A stretch of DNA of 64,000 nucleotides, from NCBI GenBank assembly GCA_937129145.1, contig CAKZMU010000009.1, positions 80,551 to 144,550 on the forward strand. Direction: 5' to 3'. The notes beneath the pieces were generated by a model. The model made no database searches and was not told the origin of the DNA. It saw only the letters and a list, made by a program, of their open reading frames with translations. The stretch is from an uncultured Lacinutrix sp. (lineage in GTDB: Bacteria > Bacteroidota > Bacteroidia > Flavobacteriales > Flavobacteriaceae). Each line of letters begins with the position of its first letter. The first letter of the stretch is position 1. The translations under genes were made by a program, and so were the position numbers. This document shows positions 27,638 to 32,551 of the stretch, one piece after another.

Positions 27638-28240
27638 ATGGCATTAGTAACACCACTTAACCCTAATCATGATGAGGAAACCAAAAAACTTTCAGATTTC
27701 TACAATGAAACGCTTGGGTTTTGTCCAAATTCGGTACTCACAATGCAACGTCGTCCAGCCATTTCAAAAGCATTTATTAATTTGAATAAAGCGGTAATGG
27801 CAAATGAAGGTCGTGTGACTTCTGCCTTAAAACGCATGATTGCTTGGGTGAGTAGTAACTCAACTGGTTGCAGATATTGTCAAGCGCATGCCATAAGAGC
27901 TGCAGAACGTTATGGCGCTGAACAAGAACAATTAGATAATATTTGGGAATACCGAACACATCCTGCTTTTAACGAAGCTGAACGTGCTGCGCTCGATTTT
28001 AGTTTAGCAGCTTCTATGGTGCCTAATGCTGTTAATGAAGATATTAAAGCGAGATTACATGAACATTGGGATGATGGTGAAATTGTAGAAATGCTCGGTG
28101 TTATAGCGCTCTTTGGTTATCTCAATCGTTGGAATGATAGTATGGGAACCAATATTGAAGAAGGTGCTGTTGAAAGTGGCGAACAGTACTTAGGCAAACA
28201 CGGTTGGAATGAAGGCAAGCATGATGGGTCACAATATTAA
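27638..28240 (+). CDS. AhpD-like / carboxymuconolactone decarboxylase family peroxidase-related protein
   Basis: A CxxC motif in the context GCRYCQAH, which is typical of the AhpD core domain. Confidence 0.7.
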   Translation: MALVTPLNPNHDEETKKLSDFYNETLGFCPNSVLTMQRRPAISKAFINLNKAVMANEGRVTSALKRMIAWVSSNSTGCRYCQAHAIRAAERYGAEQEQLDNIWEYRTHPAFNEAERAALDFSLAASMVPNAVNEDIKARLHEHWDDGEIVEMLGVIALFGYLNRWNDSMGTNIEEGAVESGEQYLGKHGWNEGKHDGSQY

Positions 28241-28440
28241 ATTTGCATCGTATAGTATAAAAATCACATATTTGCACCTAGAAATGAAAAACACAATAGT
28301 ACATAACGCACCTAAATCACTGTTTTGCCAGTGGGATTATCGAGGAATAAGAGAATTATTCCTTCGGTCAAGGACGTTTTGTAGTTGTTTTAACTGATTT
28401 TTTATATACGATATAACTAAGAAAATCTATAATTATAACA

Positions 28441-28469
28441 AGCGTCCAAGAAATTGGGCGCTTTTTTTA
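28441..28469 (+). terminator. rho-independent terminator in an otherwise gene-free region
   Basis: The hairpin AGCGTCCAA-GAAA-TTGGGCGCT (9 bp) is followed by T7. Confidence 0.7.
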
Positions 28470-28835
28470 TTAAAAAAATCGAAGAATTTGAAAATAAATT
28501 TTAAAAACTAAAATATTAAGCATTGAAGAGTAAGCAATTGGGAGACAAACACTTGCACATAAACTCAAGTATCTGTTAAAAAACGGACAGGAATATCTTT
28601 GCTTAAACCCAACACAACTATTTGATTATCAATAAATTAAATTGAAGTTTTGCTTGTTTTTTAAAACATAGATTCTCATCTTTGCATCGCAGTTTTAAAT
28701 AACTACTGCAATACATATTAATAATTAAAAACAAGAAGCCATGCTAAAGTATATGATAGCATTACAACCCTTAGGTTATGATCTTGAGTCATTTACAAGG
28801 CTTCGGTATTTTCTGTAGATAATTTCCTAGAGAAG

Positions 28836-28869
28836 AATCCGAAGCAAACAAACTGTTTCGGATTTTTTT
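28836..28869 (+). terminator. rho-independent terminator in an otherwise gene-free region
   Basis: The hairpin AATCCGAAGCA-AACAAAC-TGTTTCGGATT (11 bp including one G:U) is followed by a T-run. Confidence 0.7.
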
Positions 28870-28951
28870 ATTCCAAAATTTTAAGAGTACATCAATCTGG
28901 CAGTTTTAAGAGCATCATAAAAAATGGTGCATTTAAGACAATAATAAACTA

Positions 28952-29497
28952 TTGAATAAAACAAACATGGAAAATAATTTACACAACAACTATGTCTTTA
29001 AAGCTATGGACGCATATCCATACGAGCTTGAAGAAACATTGGAAGCATTAAACTATGCTTTATCATATAACAATAAAGATGCGCAAGCATTATGCTTAAT
29101 GGGACGTGTTTATGCTGAACAATTAAAAGATTACGAAACAGCTAAACAATATTTTGCTGAAGCTATTGCGCAACACATGGAAATGCCAAAAACATATCCA
29201 TTTTATATCCAAACTTTATTATGGAATGGTGATTATGAAGAAGCAGATAAATTAATAACATTTGGACTAACTGTAAAGGGTACTGACAAAGCTTTATTAC
29301 AATTATTACAAGGTATTCTTTTTGAAAAACAGGGGGATTTTAAGGCTGCTATCAAGGCATATAAAAAAGCTAATAAAACAGCAACAAACAACTGCTTTAT
29401 TGAATATGTGAATAATGAAATATCTAGGGTTAAAAAGAAAATGGACCCCAGAAAGAAGAAGAAAAAGAAGTCTAACAAAAAAAGAAAGGGGAAATAA
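28952..29497 (+). CDS. TPR-like protein with poly-lysine C-terminal tail
   Basis: 181 aa with TPR-like helical repeats and the C-terminus PRKKKKKKSNKKRKGK. It is followed by the hairpin ATCGGCAA-TCTTGTC-TTGCCGAT. Confidence 0.55.
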   Translation: MNKTNMENNLHNNYVFKAMDAYPYELEETLEALNYALSYNNKDAQALCLMGRVYAEQLKDYETAKQYFAEAIAQHMEMPKTYPFYIQTLLWNGDYEEADKLITFGLTVKGTDKALLQLLQGILFEKQGDFKAAIKAYKKANKTATNNCFIEYVNNEISRVKKKMDPRKKKKKKSNKKRKGK

Positions 29498-29529
29498 AAA
29501 AATCGGCAATCTTGTCTTGCCGATTTAAT

Positions 29530-29613
29530 GGGAACTCGTCAACGTTGGAGAGTTGGTGCAGATTGTAAACCTGTTGCTTAAATGCTAAGAAAGTTCGAAT
29601 CTTTCAGTTCCCA
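29530..29613 (+). tRNA. tRNA-Tyr-like (anticodon GTA), class II, slightly non-canonical
   Basis: Acceptor GGGAACT/AGTTCCC, anticodon loop TTGTAAA, variable arm CTTA-AATGC-TAAG, and T arm GAAAG-TTCGAAT-CTTTC. Anomalies are C at position 8 and an A.C pair closing the anticodon stem. Confidence 0.7.
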
Positions 29614-29627
29614 CAAATAAATAGATT

Positions 29628-29700
29628 GACAAGGTGGCTGAACGGTTAAGGCAACAGACTGCAAATCTGTTTTTTGTGAGTTCAAATCTCACCCTTGTCT
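29628..29700 (+). tRNA. tRNA-Cys (anticodon GCA)
   Basis: Acceptor GACAAGG/CCTTGTC, anticodon arm ACAGA-CTGCAAA-TCTGT, T arm GTGAG-TTCAAAT-CTCAC, and discriminator U as expected for Cys. Confidence 0.85.
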
Positions 29701-29706
29701 CAAAAT

Positions 29707-29779
29707 AGTATCGTAGCTCAATGGCTAGAGCGCTCGGTTGTCTCCCGAGAAGTTGCGGGTTCGAATCTCGTCGGTACTG
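29707..29779 (+). tRNA. tRNA-Asp (anticodon GTC)
   Basis: Acceptor AGTATCG/CGGTACT, D arm GCTC/GAGC, anticodon arm CTCGG-TTGTCTC-CCGAG, T arm GCGGG-TTCGAAT-CTCGT, and discriminator G. Confidence 0.85.
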
Positions 29780-29780
29780 C

Positions 29781-29844
29781 GAAGCAGTTTAAGAGATGAG
29801 AAGTTTACCCTGAGCGTAGTCGAAGGGAATCTTGTCGGTACTGC
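29781..29844 (+). repeat. conserved 46-nt tRNA-trailer element (copy A) plus an 18-nt duplicate of the tRNA-Asp 3' end
   Basis: 29781-29826 is GAAGCAGTTTAAGAGATGAGAAGTTTACCCTGAGCGTAGTCGAAGG. 29827-29844 (GAATCTTGTCGGTACTGC) repeats 29763-29780 with 1 mismatch. The core matches copy B at 30181-30226. Confidence 0.8.
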
Positions 29845-29848
29845 AAAT

Positions 29849-29931
29849 CTGGGAGGATAATCCCGAAGGTTCGGGAGTGGTTTACTCGCTTTGGAAGCGA
29901 GAGGTTGTAGGTTCAAATCCTACCTCTCAGA
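29849..29931 (+). tRNA. tRNA-Pro-like (anticodon TGG) with a hairpin insertion in the D-loop
   Basis: Acceptor CTGGGAG/CTCTCAG (C1:G72 and A73, as in bacterial tRNA-Pro), anticodon arm CTCGC-TTTGGAA-GCGAG, and T arm GTAGG-TTCAAAT-CCTAC. The D region is about 10 nt too long because of the hairpin TCCCGAAGGTTCGGGA (29861-29876). Confidence 0.6.
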
Positions 29932-29937
29932 CAAAAT

Positions 29938-30009
29938 ACTCCGTTAGTCAAATGGCTAAGACGCCTGACTTTCTATCAGGAATTAAGGGTTCAATTCCCT
30001 TACGGAGTA
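29938..30009 (+). tRNA. tRNA-Glu (anticodon TTC)
   Basis: Acceptor ACTCCGT/ACGGAGT, anticodon arm CCTGA-CTTTCTA-TCAGG, and T arm AAGGG-TTCAATT-CCCTT. Confidence 0.8.
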
Positions 30010-30014
30010 CACAT

Positions 30015-30100
30015 TGAGATATAGCTTAATTGGTAGAGCGTCGCTCTCATAAGGCGAATGGTTTAGGTTCTCCCGATAGTTATCGGGACTAATATCTCAA
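30015..30100 (+). tRNA. tRNA-Met/Ile2-like (anticodon CAT) with a hairpin insertion in the T-loop
   Basis: Acceptor TGAGATA/TATCTCA, D arm GCTT/GAGC, and anticodon arm TCGCT-CTCATAA-GGCGA. The T-stem is TTAG(G)/(A)CTAA, but the T-loop is TTC followed by the 18-nt hairpin TCCCGATAGTTATCGGGA (30071-30088). Confidence 0.55.
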
Positions 30101-30106
30101 CAACAC

Positions 30107-30179
30107 GCAGGAATGGCGAAACGGCAAACGCACTCGACTTAGAATCGAGAAACTGGGAGTTCGAATCTCTCTTCCTGTA
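30107..30179 (+). tRNA. tRNA-Leu-like (anticodon TAG) with a short (5-nt) variable loop
   Basis: Acceptor GCAGGAA/TTCCTGT, a class-II-like D arm (TGGCGAAACGGCAAACGC), anticodon arm CTCGA-CTTAGAA-TCGAG, variable region of only AAACT, and T arm GGGAG-TTCGAAT-CTCTC. Confidence 0.65.
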
Positions 30180-30180
30180 C

Positions 30181-30246
30181 GAAGTAAGGAAAGAGATGAG
30201 AAGTTTATGCTGAGCGAAGTCGAAGTGAATCTCTCTTCCTGTACGA
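30181..30246 (+). repeat. conserved 46-nt tRNA-trailer element (copy B) plus a 20-nt duplicate of the tRNA-Leu(TAG) 3' end
   Basis: 30181-30226 is GAAGTAAGGAAAGAGATGAGAAGTTTATGCTGAGCGAAGTCGAAGT. 30227-30246 (GAATCTCTCTTCCTGTACGA) exactly repeats 30163-30182. Confidence 0.8.
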
Positions 30247-30247
30247 T

Positions 30248-30321
30248 GCTCCACTAGCCCAAATGGAAGAGGCAACAGTTTTAAGCGCTGTTAAGTCCAA
30301 GTTCGAATCTTGGGTGGAGTA
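30248..30321 (+). tRNA. tRNA-Leu-like (anticodon TAA) with a short variable loop
   Basis: Acceptor GCTCCAC/GTGGAGT (G1:U72), anticodon arm ACAGT-TTTAAGC-GCTGT (alternatively AACAG/CTGTT with a 9-nt loop), variable TAAGT, and T arm CCAAG-TTCGAAT-CTTGG. Confidence 0.6.
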
Positions 30322-30327
30322 CAAAAT

Positions 30328-30451
30328 AAGCTTATGGTGTAATGGAAAGCACACAAGGTTTAGCTCATGCATATCTATTTCAAGAAATAGGTATTCGTGA
30401 ATGCAAAGCATTTCGAACCTTGGAGTATGGGTTCAAGTCCTATTAAGCTTA
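30328..30451 (+). tRNA. tRNA-like gene (probably Arg, anticodon TCG) with a 52-nt insertion in the anticodon loop
   Basis: Acceptor AAGCTTA/TAAGCTT, D arm GTGT/GCAC, anticodon stem CAAGG (30354-58) / CCTTG (30418-22) enclosing 59 nt, and T arm ATGGG-TTCAAGT-CCTAT. The last 7 loop nt, TTTCGAA, form a canonical loop. The insert at 30359-30410 contains the hairpin CTATTTC-AAG-GAAATAG. Confidence 0.55.
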
Positions 30452-30456
30452 CAAAA

Positions 30457-30527
30457 TAACCTGTGGTGTAACGGTAACACTCAAGATTTTGATTCTTGTA
30501 TTATAGGTTCGAATCCTATCAGGTTAT
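30457..30527 (+). tRNA. tRNA-Gln (anticodon TTG)
   Basis: Acceptor TAACCTG/CAGGTTA, D arm GTGT/ACAC, anticodon arm CAAGA-TTTTGAT-TCTTG, and T arm ATAGG-TTCGAAT-CCTAT. Confidence 0.8.
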
Positions 30528-30535
30528 CAAAAAAT

Positions 30536-30608
30536 GGAACAGTAGCAAAGTTGGTCAATGCGTCGGACTGAAAATCTGAAAATACAGGTTCAATTCCTGT
30601 CTGTTCCA
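30536..30608 (+). tRNA. tRNA-Phe (anticodon GAA)
   Basis: Acceptor GGAACAG/CTGTTCC, anticodon arm TCGGA-CTGAAAA-TCTGA, and T arm ACAGG-TTCAATT-CCTGT. Confidence 0.82.
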
Positions 30609-30768
30609 CTAAAATTAAAGATTCCTGCCTATGCAGGAAATAATATCAAGCTGGTCTTGTTGAGTGTTTCGGTATAGCACTATTGTATAAATCGTTGCAG
30701 AAATGCATCATGAGTTTATGTTCAACTAGACTTGAAGGTTTTGACTGTTAACCAAAAAATGGTCTCCC

Positions 30769-30803
30769 CCTATAGGTCGTGGGTTCGACTCCCACTTATC
30801 CCA
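30769..30803 (+). pseudogene. orphan tRNA 3' half (anticodon-stem 3' strand, variable loop, T arm, acceptor 3' strand)
   Basis: CCTAT-AGGTC-GTGGG-TTCGACT-CCCAC-TTATCCC-A. No matching 5' half lies upstream. The complementary 5' half lies 3 nt downstream. Confidence 0.6.
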
Positions 30804-30806
30804 ATT

Positions 30807-30873
30807 GGGATAGTAGTTCAGTGGTTAGAACAATAGGATGTAGGTGTTGCTGGTTCGATTCCAGTCGTTTGCT
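30807..30873 (+). pseudogene. tRNA 5' half (acceptor 5' strand, D arm, anticodon-stem 5' strand) fused to an unrelated T arm and acceptor 3' strand
   Basis: GGGATAG-TA-GTTC-AGTGGTTA-GAAC-A-ATAGG is followed by ATGTAGGTGTT, then GCTGG-TTCGATT-CCAGT-CGTTTGC. The acceptor strands within this unit do not pair. GGGATAG and ATAGG pair perfectly with the upstream fragment at 30769-30803. Confidence 0.55.
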
Positions 30874-30888
30874 TGGAGAAATTCCTTG

Positions 30889-30950
30889 GCAATAGTAGCT
30901 CAATTGGTAGAGCACTGCACTTTTAATGCAGGTTTGGACTCAAAATCCAC
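30889..30950 (+). pseudogene. tRNA-Lys-like (anticodon TTT) fragment lacking a matching acceptor 3' strand
   Basis: GCAATAG-TA-GCTC-AATTGGTA-GAGC-A-CTGCA-CTTTTAA-TGCAG is followed by a degenerate T arm (TGGA-CTCAAAA-TCCA). No CTATTGC-like 3' strand lies downstream. Confidence 0.5.
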
Positions 30951-31450
30951 AATCAAAAGCCCATCATCTTTTAAAACTGATGACCAACGCAGATTGTCAT
31001 TCTGCTCAACAAAAATGACAAAAATAGTAGATTGCAAGTCGGCTTTAGATTCCTGCATTACTGACGCATCGGTCAACACTGGTCGTGGGAATGACAAAAC
31101 TAGAGCAGTCTTGAAAGTGCCTTGAAATACTGATTTTTAATAGTAGAAGTGGTTACTGTTTTGTAATAAGAAATTATATAAATCTGATTATCGATTCATA
31201 TAGTTGTCACAATACTCAGCACTAATTACAGGCACTATTAATATGAGTATTTCCGCACCAGAAAAATGATTTGCTTTCTGCTATTTTTAACAATGAAGAG
31301 ATATAAAAATATACTTCAATTAATGATGAACTCGTCATTGTTTTTTGAAGTTGGTAAGCCTTCCGTTACAAGAATTGCCGCCACGCTCAAAAATGGGCAA
31401 CAATAAATGTTTAATCTTCCTGAAATAAATTCAGGATAAAAAAATTAGAA

Positions 31451-32551
31451 ATGATGAAACGAGTAAGAATTAATGTTGGAGAAGTAGGATTGGTTTTCAA
31501 AAGAGGTGATTACAAAAGAGTAATTACTCAAGGAAAAAACTGGTTAGGGTTTGGCGAGCGTGTTTTAACCTATAACTTAGCTCATGCTTTCGTTGCTCCA
31601 AAAACACTAGAACTCTTGCTAAAAGACGAGGTGTTGGAGGCAATGTTAGACATTATTGAAGTAAAGGATGGTGAACTTGTATTGGTTTACGAAAAAGGGA
31701 GCTTTAAAACTGTTTTAACTGCTGGTCGTTATGTGTACTGGAAGGGTTTGATTAATCGTGAATATACACGCGTTGATTTAAGCAAAATTTATATTACTGA
31801 AAACATTGACAAAGCATTGTTTAGTAACTATGAATTAAGCAAATACATTCGAGTTTTTGAAGTAGCTGCTTACGAAAAAGCTATCCTTTTGGTAGATGAT
31901 GTATATACAAAGACGCTTGACGGCGGTACATACCGATTCTGGAGAAATGATACCACAATTAAAATTGCTAAGGCTGATTTACGTCAGTTACAACTAGAAA
32001 TTGCTGGACAAGAATTGTTAACTAAAGATAAAGCAGCTATTCGTATCAACTTTTACACACAGTATAAAGTAACAGATATTGAAAAGGCTTTACTAGGAAA
32101 CAAAGATTATGAAAAGCAATTATACATTGCTATGCAATTGGTATTGCGCGCTTACATTGGTACTTACACACTAGATGAATTGCTAGAGCGTAAAGAAAAC
32201 ATTGCAGAAGCTGTATTTGAAGATGTTAAAGCAAGTGCATCAAAATTAGGTGTAAGCGTTTTAAGCTGCGGTATTAGAGATGTGATTTTAACCGGAGATA
32301 TGAAAGAGATTATGAACCAGGTTTTAGTTGCACAAAAGAAAGCGCAAGCAAATACAATTACAAGACGTGAAGAAACAGCTTCTACTCGTAGCTTGCTAAA
32401 TACGGCAAAGTTGATGGAAGAGAATAACATGCTGTACAAGCTAAAAGAAATGGAGTATGTTGAAAAAATCGCTGAGAAAATTGGTGAAATCACAGTCTCA
32501 GGTAATGGTGGAATGGTAACACAATTGAAAGAGATTTTCTCTGGAAAATAA
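31451..32551 (+). CDS. slipin/SPFH (band-7) family protein
   Basis: 366 aa. The C-terminal half has an SPFH-like core and a coiled-coil (QKKAQANTITRREETASTR). Confidence 0.7.
   Translation: MMKRVRINVGEVGLVFKRGDYKRVITQGKNWLGFGERVLTYNLAHAFVAPKTLELLLKDEVLEAMLDIIEVKDGELVLVYEKGSFKTVLTAGRYVYWKGLINREYTRVDLSKIYITENIDKALFSNYELSKYIRVFEVAAYEKAILLVDDVYTKTLDGGTYRFWRNDTTIKIAKADLRQLQLEIAGQELLTKDKAAIRINFYTQYKVTDIEKALLGNKDYEKQLYIAMQLVLRAYIGTYTLDELLERKENIAEAVFEDVKASASKLGVSVLSCGIRDVILTGDMKEIMNQVLVAQKKAQANTITRREETASTRSLLNTAKLMEENNMLYKLKEMEYVEKIAEKIGEITVSGNGGMVTQLKEIFSGK

Follow-up and report, generated by a model that had tools for sequence, protein, structure and literature searches.

A phage-type tRNA array in a chromosomal cassette of Flavobacteriaceae, with an adjoining structured RNA, an SPFH gene and tRNA-copying modules

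Accessory tRNA arrays and the large structured RNAs that lie adjacent to them are already known, and they are functionally obscure. The L-arrays, of which the trn operon of Anabaena PCC 7120 is an example, are supernumerary and silent and are induced under translational stress (PMC8421152), and an array unit has been defined as comprising at least 20 tRNA genes (PMC4758250). Phage-encoded tRNAs rescue cells from the PARIS and retron tRNases (PMC11464382, PMC11555353), the GOLLD and ROOL RNAs form cages that have been proposed to hold tRNAs (PMC12286853), and the YrlA Y RNAs have the architecture of a permuted tRNA mimic, for whose recognition tandem tRNAs have been warned of as a source of artefact (PMC4201824). 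Here we analyse a locus that has features in common with all of these. In a 64,000-nt stretch from an uncultured Lacinutrix sp. (contig CAKZMU010000009.1, positions 80,551 to 144,550; hereafter the window, in which position 1 is the first nucleotide), eleven tRNA-type units and a structured RNA of ~650 nt lie between a gene for a TPR-repeat protein and a gene for an SPFH protein, all four parts being co-oriented. We read this locus as a chromosomally fixed accessory tRNA operon of phage ancestry that is now partly decayed, a reading that we hold with about even confidence.

The array and its chromosomal setting

The units span positions 29530-30608, all on the + strand (as are the other parts of the cassette) and within 1.08 kb. 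ARAGORN calls seven of them on this strand at 29628-30609, namely tRNA-Cys(GCA) (29628-29700; 65.5 bits with the Rfam tRNA model), tRNA-Asp(GTC) (29707-29779; 58.3 bits), tRNA-Glu(TTC) (29938-30009; 65 bits), tRNA-Leu(TAG) (30107-30179; 66.6 bits), tRNA-Leu(TAA) (30248-30321; 49.9 bits), tRNA-Gln(TTG) (30457-30527; 64.4 bits) and tRNA-Phe(GAA) (30536-30608; 72.6 bits), the last of which is the final array tRNA in most relatives. If a canonical tRNA is taken to be one with both a finder call and a full-length Rfam match above the gathering score, these seven of the eleven units qualify, at 50-73 bits. Of the other four, a tRNA-Tyr(GTA)-like unit (29530-29613) reaches 15.6 bits (at 29547-29613), a tRNA-Pro(TGG)-like unit (29851-29931) and a unit with a CAT anticodon (30016-30099) score only when an arm is skipped (36.3 bits at 29871-29931 without the D arm, and a partial 30.6 bits at 30020-30078, respectively), and a tRNA-Arg(TCG)-like unit (30328-30452) is found only with the intron option of ARAGORN. 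The same eleven units and anticodons had been named in the original prediction, which had been made by reading the letters and had proposed scoring the units with tRNA finders; that check, run with ARAGORN and Rfam, thus gives seven ordinary scores and four damaged or atypical units, and the tight, CAAAAT-like spacing that had been described is reproduced, at 4-14 nt between units. CCA is encoded in none of the eleven. Their GC content is 0.35-0.55, compared with 0.55 and 0.53 in the two isolated tRNAs of the window and 0.34 in the window as a whole. Three metagenome contigs with an identical TPR gene (L122-L124) span the array and carry the same seven tRNAs; two others with an identical SPFH gene (L001, L002) end before reaching it.

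The unusual features of the units appear to be of two kinds. First, comparison of orthologous sequences suggests that the short-arm Leu units and the C8 of the Tyr-like unit are conserved features and not marks of decay. Both Leu units are 73-74 nt long, with a variable loop of 4-5 nt and a G1.U72 pair, and neither has the type II form of tRNA-Leu, of which the core Flavobacteriaceae Leu(TAG) (that of Olleya, 85 nt with a long arm) is an example; among nine copies compared, one of them from a phage, the Leu(TAG) cloverleaf is maintained by compensatory changes in the anticodon stem. The Tyr-like unit, a type II unit with C8 and with an A.C mismatch in its anticodon stem, folds as a cloverleaf, and ARAGORN calls its orthologues in three relatives (L125, L126 and L129) tRNA-Tyr. 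Second, the palindromes in the Pro-like and CAT units and the insert in the Arg-like unit look, on the same comparison, like lineage-specific damage. The Pro-like unit carries a 14-nt palindrome in its D-loop (CCCGAAGGTTCGGG; hairpin at 29862-29875), and the Pro(TGG) gene of L126, which is free of this hairpin, is 73 nt long, is called by ARAGORN and scores 42.6 bits with Rfam. The CAT unit carries an 18-nt palindrome in its T-loop (TCCCGATAGTTATCGGGA; hairpin at 30072-30087), and its acceptor stem and D arm match, in a by-eye comparison with L063 and L125, the Lys(TTT) gene of relatives. The Arg-like unit, which folds as a cloverleaf plus an insert hairpin (z = -2.8), has a 52-nt AT-rich hairpin in its anticodon loop; its orthologues in L126 and L127 are intact Arg(ACG) genes with the same acceptor strand, AAGCTTA. 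We considered and rejected a group I intron at this position, the insert being just 52 nt (against at least 200 nt) and giving no match to the Rfam Intron_gpI family, and introns of the archaeal type are ruled out by the plainly bacterial flanking genes (RecJ, RsmI and others). Four of the eleven units are damaged or atypical, and hence are probably inactive in this genome. The list of deviations in the original prediction therefore stands for the missing variable arm of Leu, the C8 and mispaired stem of Tyr, the Arg loop insert and the Pro and CAT palindromes, but not for the hairpins after Asp and Leu(TAG), which belong to separate 64-nt elements (see below); nor can non-canonical form be equated with decay, as some of it (short-arm Leu, Tyr C8) is conserved by compensatory changes.

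Related oddities occur in the arrays of relatives. The Phe unit of Jejuia spongiicola (L063 2492-2619, minus strand) has a 57-nt AT-rich hairpin insert in its anticodon loop (CTATTT..AAATAG), styled like the Arg insert of the window. A palindrome of the form (T)CCCGA-N2-8-TCGGG(A) is found in D-loops, in T-loops or in place of the anticodon arm in the window and in L130, L139, L146, L157, L166, L167 and L127 (at 4605); there are 36 copies inside cassette loci and one outside, ~17 of the inside copies being natural Asp or Glu anticodon arms, and in some relatives this palindrome also makes up the capped acceptor-like hairpin in the permuted tRNA domain described below. In Winogradskyella sp. 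R77965 the Gln orthologue (L127 5305-5376; Rfam 66 bits) has the anticodon UUA (TTA), that of an ochre suppressor, and is one anticodon base and one D-loop base apart from the Gln(TTG) of the window; that such a variant is tolerated fits low or conditional expression. Two further units are absent from the window. A conserved 'Tyr(ATA)' unit (L125 5413-5483, L126 5636-5706, L127 5378-5449, L129 4671-4742) has the anticodon arm GAGG-UAUAU-CCUC, whose 5-nt loop is unlike a normal decoding loop, and a 207-nt unit that follows tRNA-Phe (L063 2280-2486 on the minus strand, L125 5571-5777, L126 5791-5997) has a tRNA-like acceptor, D arm and T arm with an insert of ~125 nt in place of the anticodon arm, which matches neither a group I intron nor any other Rfam family.

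Through homologues of the TPR protein the cassette was traced to five named genomes, those of Jejuia spongiicola, Hyunsoonleella flava, Seonamhaeicola maritimus, Winogradskyella sp. R77965 and Flaviramulus sp. BrNp1-15, and in all five the TPR and SPFH genes bracket 1.1-2.4 kb of non-coding DNA with a homologous array. In six genomes (the window and L063, L125, L126, L127 and L129) the parts follow one another in synteny as TPR gene, array, structured RNA and SPFH gene, and outside the TPR-SPFH pair the gene content differs in each. In the window the TPR gene lies at 28952-29497; TPR repeats are recognised by Pfam and NCBIfam, and the protein ends in a poly-Lys/Arg tail, its final 25 residues being 60-72% K/R in all close relatives. 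In L063 and L125-L129 its orthologues, which are 79-89% identical, immediately precede the array; the gene is a member of the cassette in the closer relatives only. The SPFH/Band_7 (stomatin-like) gene, at 31451-32551, is identified by Pfam Band_7 and by PDB stomatin matches over residues 136-342. The arrays share the order Tyr, (Arg/Cys/Asn), Asp, Ser, Pro, Glu, Val, Lys, Leu TAG, Leu TAA, Arg ACG, Gln, His, the atypical 'Tyr(ATA)' and Phe, with 3-14 units per array in the syntenic loci.

A motif from the region downstream of the array retrieved 52 metagenome contigs, in 43 of which the RNA motif is followed, 550-750 nt further downstream, by an SPFH homologue (44-85% identical); the remaining nine terminate within ~730 nt of the motif. 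Upstream of the motif these 52 contigs have anywhere from 0 to 18 tRNAs. Among array tRNAs 12 of 139 encode CCA, and spacers are most often 4-5 nt long. Where a relative has just 0-3 array tRNAs, its tRNAs for Asp, Glu, Leu, Gln and Cys must be encoded elsewhere, and a canonical CAT tRNA is also present within the window. Since the number of tRNAs ranges from 0 to 18 among relatives, the array probably does not hold the sole copies of its isoacceptors; when the locus is compared across relatives, as the original prediction had suggested, the cassette thus proves to be syntenically conserved, but probably not as the holder of unique isoacceptors. Judged from the relatives' tRNA counts, the array would be supernumerary. 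The invariant pair of the cassette appears to be the structured RNA and the SPFH gene, and the array itself seems to be evolutionarily fluid, with units gained, lost, or hit by palindromes or by the 52-nt insert.

The tRNAs themselves point to phages. BLAST of the locus returned 234 phage records against one plasmid record, each match being to a single tRNA at 76-83% identity. The best case is Vibrio phage VspSw_1 (L182), a T5-like member of the Demerecviridae, whose tRNA array has adjacent short-arm Leu(TAG) and Leu(TAA) genes in the same order: the Leu(TAG) of the window is 83% identical to that of the phage, with an identical acceptor stem, and its Leu(TAA) aligns with the phage Leu(TAA). 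Directly upstream of the phage Leu pair there is an unannotated GOLLD RNA (185 bits; L182 1978-2398, 44407-44827 of the record). T5-like phage clusters thus share with our locus both homologous tRNAs and a large structured RNA within or beside the array, but the VspSw_1 copies encode CCA and sit among phage genes, whereas those of the window are CCA-less and belong to a chromosomal cassette devoid of phage genes. The motifs of the array and its tail were not found in viral contigs. The idea of a phage- or mobile-element-type array is therefore upheld as regards the type of the tRNAs (the phage records, the Leu pair) and fails as regards a loose mobile island, the cassette being syntenic in at least five other Flavobacteriaceae; the reported lack of a flanking phage or recombinase gene is confirmed for ~5 kb on either side. 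These comparisons support the conclusion that the tRNAs are phage-type by homology, yet the locus is a fixed chromosomal cassette.

The Anabaena L-array (PMC8421152, PMC4758250) is another close counterpart. Like the present locus it is a dense, co-oriented set of tRNA genes, supernumerary there and probably so here, in which isodecoder redundancy prevails over new anticodons, its content is patchy, its origin is probably foreign, and expression is likely to be low except under stress. By density our array qualifies (at least two tRNA genes per kb in a single orientation), but with 11 units here and 3-18 in relatives it stays below the 20 genes of an array unit. Its distribution seems less sporadic than that of L-arrays, the cassette occupying a fixed syntenic site in several genera, and it is tied to a structured RNA and an SPFH gene. 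Neither a homing endonuclease nor an rtcB gene, as found in the L-array context, was seen near it.

A structured RNA with permuted tRNA-like domains

Just after the array, a large conserved RNA of ~650 nt occupies ~30640-31290 on the + strand; the 800 nt beyond tRNA-Phe are conserved across all six genomes with a mean column identity of 71%. Between array and RNA stands a hairpin (30622-30639) with no T-run after it, whose stem sequences vary but, by eye, stay self-complementary in the six syntenic tails. The 5' domain of the RNA (30640-30768) consists of a long-range helix H1 (30646-30655/30725-30735), an invariant hairpin H2 (30663-30681), a hairpin H3 (30685-30721) and a hairpin H5 (30743-30764) with a conserved A-rich loop. 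It is followed by a circularly permuted tRNA-like domain (30769-30837), which runs from closing stem through T arm, capped acceptor-like hairpin and D arm back to closing stem and in which H6-H9 covary, and by a second tRNA-like region (30849-30955; Rfam tRNA 26.2 and 30.5 bits) made up of a second T arm (30849-30865), a hairpin, and a D arm plus an anticodon-like arm (30889-30955), where H10 covaries and the D arm is supported in an alignment of the 3' half. The 3' part (30956-31290) contains conserved sequence blocks and ends in a hairpin with a T-run (CAGAAA..TTTCTG CTATTTTT) at ~31260-31290.

Support for this fold comes from 46 distinct sequences covering the first 240 nt (window 30640-30878), for which RNAalifold predicts 55 pairs, 34 of them with compensatory changes. 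When hairpin H5 and two GG/CC pairs are added to that structure, both sides have changed in 38 of 62 pairs, and all six pairs of H8 covary; 96.3% of cells in paired columns can pair, compared with 82.7% in shuffles, none of 500 of which reaches the observed value, and sliding the partners by one to three columns lowers the figure to 39-45%. For the 3' half RNAalifold returned no supported consensus structure. With an nhmmer profile, the 5' domain is found only in cassette loci, and elsewhere only the tRNA-like part cross-matches ordinary tRNAs. What the original prediction had taken for three tRNA fragments trailing the array (30771-30955) are, in consequence, not decayed genes but conserved, covarying tRNA-like modules of a larger structured RNA.

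Three known kinds of RNA had to be considered. First, the Rfam YrlA model (RF02553) matches 30771-30835 below threshold (32.9 bits against a gathering score of 69, over model positions 23-85 only) and gives 39.6 and 37.4 bits in L063. As modelled, the permuted domain has a YrlA-type architecture, which would explain these sub-threshold matches: it shares with YrlA (RF02553, PMC4201824) the T arm, the capped acceptor-like stem-loop, the D arm, a stem in the place of the anticodon arm and conserved T- and D-loop sequences. Because the acceptor-like hairpin covaries, the tandem-tRNA artefact is excluded. Membership of the family nevertheless fails, as the score is below threshold and no Ro60/rsr gene is adjacent, none being present among the flanking window proteins (4-5 kb) or the called genes of L125-L129 (Ro60/TROVE, rsr). 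Unlike YrlA, moreover, the mimic is here one domain of a ~650-nt RNA that has a distinct 5' domain, a second tRNA-like module and an SPFH partner gene. Second, GOLLD and ROOL (PMC12286853) likewise are conserved structured RNAs of more than 500 nt beside a tRNA array, with tRNA or tRNA-like elements inside. Neither gave an Rfam match up to E = 10 in 29400-31300 or a match by nhmmer, whereas GOLLD was readily detected at 185 bits in L182 as a positive control; the RNA described here differs further in being chromosomal and not part of a prophage and in being constantly followed by an SPFH gene, the supported structure being that of its 5' 240 nt. Third, a tmRNA (transfer-messenger RNA) or permuted tmRNA at 30584-30815 was rejected, since only its tRNA-like ends score (16-23 bits) and ARAGORN finds no tmRNA. 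The RNA is thus a member of none of the tested families (YrlA, GOLLD, ROOL).

Modules that copy tRNA 3' ends

Two tRNAs of the array are followed by a 64-nt module of another kind: module 1 (29780-29848) after tRNA-Asp and module 2 (30180-30246) after tRNA-Leu(TAG). They were recognised as direct repeats (D4 and D14 for module 1) and by alignment. Module 1 reads CGAA, a strand complementary to the 3' end of tRNA-Asp, GAG-AAGUUUA, a hairpin CCC-UGAGCGUAGUCGAA-GGG, an A, and a copy of tRNA-Asp from T-loop to discriminator; module 2 has the same core, and its flanking strands match tRNA-Leu(TAG). The shared core is AAGAGAUGAG-AAGUUUA-NN-CUGAGCG-N-AGUCGAAG-N-GAAUCU, and each module ends in an exact copy, from T-loop to discriminator, of its own upstream tRNA. 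The components are P1, GAGAAGUUUA, P2 and a loop, in the general form P1 5' strand, GAG, AAGUUUA, P2, loop UGAGCGNAGUCGAA, P2', A, P1 3' strand; where a module is tRNA-linked, the copy of the tRNA serves as the P1 3' strand, and the sequence of the P1 5' strand is fitted to this copy. The pattern has two matches in the window against none expected.

Elsewhere, an exact-pattern scan of one genome per GTDB species found the module in at least 119 stretches, mostly from Flavobacteriaceae among the matches listed, which also include Chitinophagaceae, Cyanobacteria, Gammaproteobacteria, Dehalococcoidia, Patescibacteria, Omnitrophota and more. Among 137 copies there are 52 for which a tRNA lies no more than 600 nt upstream and has its last 10-20 nt repeated right after the core; these tRNAs represent 13 amino-acid identities. 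Tandem arrays with periods of 64-116 nt are common. P1 and P2 covary, and the 68 G.U-type pairs against two A.C-type pairs in P2 imply that the fold is strand-specific, in the sense of the tRNA. The energy of single modules on minimum-free-energy folding is no better than that of shuffles (z = -1.0 to -1.7), so that structural support comes from comparison and not from energy. At the junction between Leu TAG and Leu TAA the module is present in the window, L063 and L131, and the site is empty in L125, L126 and L127; an insertion after Asp is also found in L131, as two tandem copies, and in L144. In the long forms the duplicated block takes in the tRNA's own terminator, which argues that the repeat was made in situ. 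A 91-nt variant after tRNA-Pro in L126 (4967-5057) starts with AAGTTTAC, has an enlarged loop (CTGAGGCG...CGAAG) and ends in a copy of the Pro 3' end; its existence means that the exact-pattern scan undercounts the family. Copies not linked to a tRNA are nested in the reverse complement of the same motif (CCTTCGACT|AAGTTTA...|ACTCAGG) or flanked by CACCCT/AGGGTG. They occur in L020, L064, L084 and L114 (Flavobacterium and relatives) and in L022, L030, L036, L072, L082, L102, L104 and L105 (the Dehalococcoidia metagenome-assembled genome OZ240221.1 and similar); one Dehalococcoidia genome has many, and they resemble repetitive extragenic palindromes or miniature inverted-repeat transposable elements built from CTGAGC..GTCGAAG units.

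Known elements do not account for the module. It matches no Rfam family, and searchable full-text papers yielded neither its sequence nor any report of small elements targeting T-loops. Ribozymes (hammerhead, hepatitis delta virus-like/theta, hairpin, twister, pistol, hatchet) were rejected, there being no Rfam match to E = 10 and no catalytic core by eye, such as the hammerhead CUGANGA...GAAA. Integrases of the P4 type, which target the 3' ends of tRNA genes, leave attL/attR repeats behind. Such repeats resemble the module in being direct repeats from T-loop to 3' end, with the intact tRNA upstream and a displaced partial copy downstream. They differ in that here the repeats are separated by 47 to ~95 nt (47 nt in the window) with no integrase or cargo, that the same 30-nt core recurs in many phyla and at 13 tRNA identities, and that the repeat length is variable and can include the terminator. 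Neither such an att remnant nor a CRISPR-like repeat-spacer, an IS200/IS605-type hairpin element or a guide RNA explains a tailored 5' strand together with in-situ duplication, and no associated gene was found for any of them. The loop sequence GUCGAAG fits the short motif GNCGAAN0-1G proposed for Ro60 binding, which may be chance.

How, then, might the modules have arisen? Somewhat short of an even chance, in our estimate, is that they are a non-autonomous DNA element that inserts in tRNA T-loops (or TTCGA hairpins) and duplicates its target from position 57/58, and not a functional RNA of the operon. This would account for the difference in occupancy at orthologous junctions, for the tandem arrays, for the in-situ duplication that includes the terminator, which resembles a target-site duplication, and for the spread over many phyla with multiple and nested copies per genome. 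It leaves aside that neither a transposase, an integrase nor an autonomous partner was identified and that the core is absent from viral contigs and the consensus from plasmid and phage collections. Nor does simple insertion explain the individual fit between each tRNA and the strand 5' of the core, and pairing that is always in the sense of the tRNA would fit either a selected RNA or a fold of one DNA strand. The alternative suggested by these sequences is that the modules are a selected acceptor/T-arm minihelix RNA.

Possible working of the locus

The proposed working starts from transcription. Only two Bacteroidetes-type -7 boxes are present in 28200-31460, at 28238 and 28594, both upstream of the TPR open reading frame; there is none between the TPR and SPFH genes, and a scan found no + strand terminator inside the cassette. 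With no recognisable promoter or strong terminator between its parts, the locus is probably transcribed as a single precursor, which would begin at a promoter upstream of the TPR gene. By analogy with standard tRNA processing, cleavage by RNase P and an RNase Z-type activity followed by CCA addition would free the seven intact CCA-less tRNAs. The released tRNAs (Cys, Asp, Glu, the two short-arm Leu, Gln and Phe) would duplicate isoacceptors encoded elsewhere and could serve as a reserve to draw on if housekeeping tRNAs run short or translation comes under stress. Such a reserve is the most likely role of the array, by analogy with the Anabaena L-array (PMC8421152) and the tRNAs of phage T5 (PMC11464382, PMC11555353). 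The permuted mimic in the structured RNA would offer a tRNA elbow to tRNA-binding enzymes.

Several observations weigh against a reserve pool. Four of the eleven units of the window are disrupted, several conserved units of relatives are implausible decoders (the 'Tyr(ATA)' unit with its 5-nt loop, the 207-nt unit), and the leucyl-tRNA synthetase of the host may fail to charge Leu tRNAs that have a short arm and G1.U72. Many loci have the structured RNA and the SPFH gene but no tRNA at all, so that decoding capacity is perhaps not the selected function. Co-transcription is argued from the absence of motifs, the expression, processing and aminoacylation of the units are sequence-based predictions, and no tRNA-targeting toxin or defence gene was found nearby when five proteins were searched with PADLOC.

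The main rival of the reserve-pool reading takes up the invariant RNA-SPFH link, to which tRNAs are optional. It holds that tRNA-shaped RNAs (the permuted domains of the large RNA along with atypical units of the array and the 3'-end minihelix modules), a cage-forming SPFH protein and the polybasic TPR protein together form a tRNA-mimic ribonucleoprotein system that binds, sequesters or decoys tRNA-recognising enzymes, be they tRNases, RNase P/Z, or modification or repair enzymes, in parallel to Ro60-Y RNA particles or GOLLD/ROOL cages. We consider this unlikely, although a good deal would fit. The permuted tRNA-like domain covaries fully, non-decoding tRNA-like units are conserved in relatives, the CCCGA..TCGGG hairpin recurs at elbow loops with the cassette bias given above, the TPR protein has its poly-K/R tail, and the homologous phage array carries GOLLD, one of the proposed tRNA-holding cages (PMC12286853), directly upstream of the same Leu pair. 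On the other hand, no Ro60/TROVE gene is adjacent, contact between protein and RNA is putative, and the sole similarity detected for the SPFH protein is to stomatin-type SPFH proteins, with nothing that points to RNA binding. Seven units, moreover, resemble ordinary decoders, with purifying selection on the cloverleaf and standard anticodon loops.

Less likely again is a decaying relic, in which a single ancestor of these Flavobacteriaceae would once have acquired an old tRNA cluster from a phage or mobile element, now subject to neutral erosion. The four disrupted units, the tRNA content of 0 to 18 among relatives, the tolerated suppressor anticodon in L127 and the anticodon-loop inserts in the window and L063 are all what erosion would produce. 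However, the cloverleaves of intact units are preserved across genera by compensatory changes, order and 4-5 nt spacers are retained where identity in the flanking protein is down to 79-89%, structural selection on the neighbouring RNA is strong, and 1-2 kb of neutral DNA would not be expected to persist at a fixed site across genera. That array and RNA form a long 5' leader of the SPFH mRNA, whose tRNA-like modules attract RNase P/Z and thereby put SPFH expression under the control of processing or of the state of the tRNA pool, is improbable: the RNA does lie a constant 550-750 nt upstream of the gene on the same strand, a conserved element precedes the start codon in close relatives, and the hairpin and T-run at ~31260-31290 is the sole strong-terminator candidate between the two, but that very structure would, as a terminator, split the RNA from the mRNA, the Flavo-1 motif intervenes in some relatives, and we found no precedent for a leader of 650 nt-2 kb with up to 18 tRNAs.

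Two components of the locus could turn out to represent new kinds, namely the RNA-SPFH pair and the module that copies tRNA 3' ends. We suggest only tentatively that they jointly do so, the RNA with the soluble, cage-forming SPFH protein and the polybasic TPR protein as an unrecognised tRNA-centred ribonucleoprotein system and the 64-nt module as a class of tRNA-3'-templated elements. If this were true, the former would be a chromosomal counterpart of the phage tRNA island with GOLLD or ROOL and might store, guard or decoy tRNAs under attack by tRNA-cleaving toxins; the latter, which occurs at core tRNA genes of many phyla, would be a mobile element whose target duplication is anchored in the T-loop or else a processed acceptor/T-arm minihelix. 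A YrlA-type mimic without an adjacent Ro60 gene widens the contexts of tRNA mimicry, and a 64-nt element beside ordinary tRNA genes from Cyanobacteria to Patescibacteria bears on the integrity and annotation of tRNA genes across bacteria. A phage-type array fixed in a chromosomal cassette can be compared across cultured marine Flavobacteriaceae, and the questions it raises are testable in tractable strains: does it hold a tRNA reserve against toxins or stress, what is the role of the tRNA-mimicking RNA, and why is it paired with an SPFH gene?

Upstream of the array lie genes for RecJ, OsmC, a CMD-family protein and the TPR protein, and downstream of it those for the SPFH protein, an M28 peptidase, UDG and RsmI. 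Of the five proteins compared with PADLOC defence models, four (SPFH included) had no match and the TPR protein had one weak match (E = 0.0003); PHROGs returned nothing useful for the TPR and SPFH proteins, and we found no literature linking SPFH proteins to tRNA-like RNA. The TPR gene is preceded by a 700-nt AT-rich (27-30% GC) non-coding spacer (28241-28951) with a terminator-like hairpin at 28440-28463; this spacer, whose counterparts in relatives are about as long, is likely to be where the cassette has its promoter. A hairpin that separates the TPR stop codon from the first tRNA (29500-29526) is conserved in all six syntenic loci, as a weak terminator without a T-run on the + strand and terminator-like on the minus strand only. 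Shortly before the SPFH start codon (window ~31330-31400), close relatives share a conserved element, AACTCGT..GAAGTTGGTAAnCCTTCCGTTACAGGnnTTACC, which might form a hairpin, a leader or a regulatory element. The Flavo-1 RNA motif (RF01705), for which the window has no match at the gathering threshold, lies between the structured RNA and the SPFH gene, or just downstream of that gene, in relatives (L129 5470-5545, L063 1549-1628, L125 7794-7939 and L126 8005-8088, minus strand).

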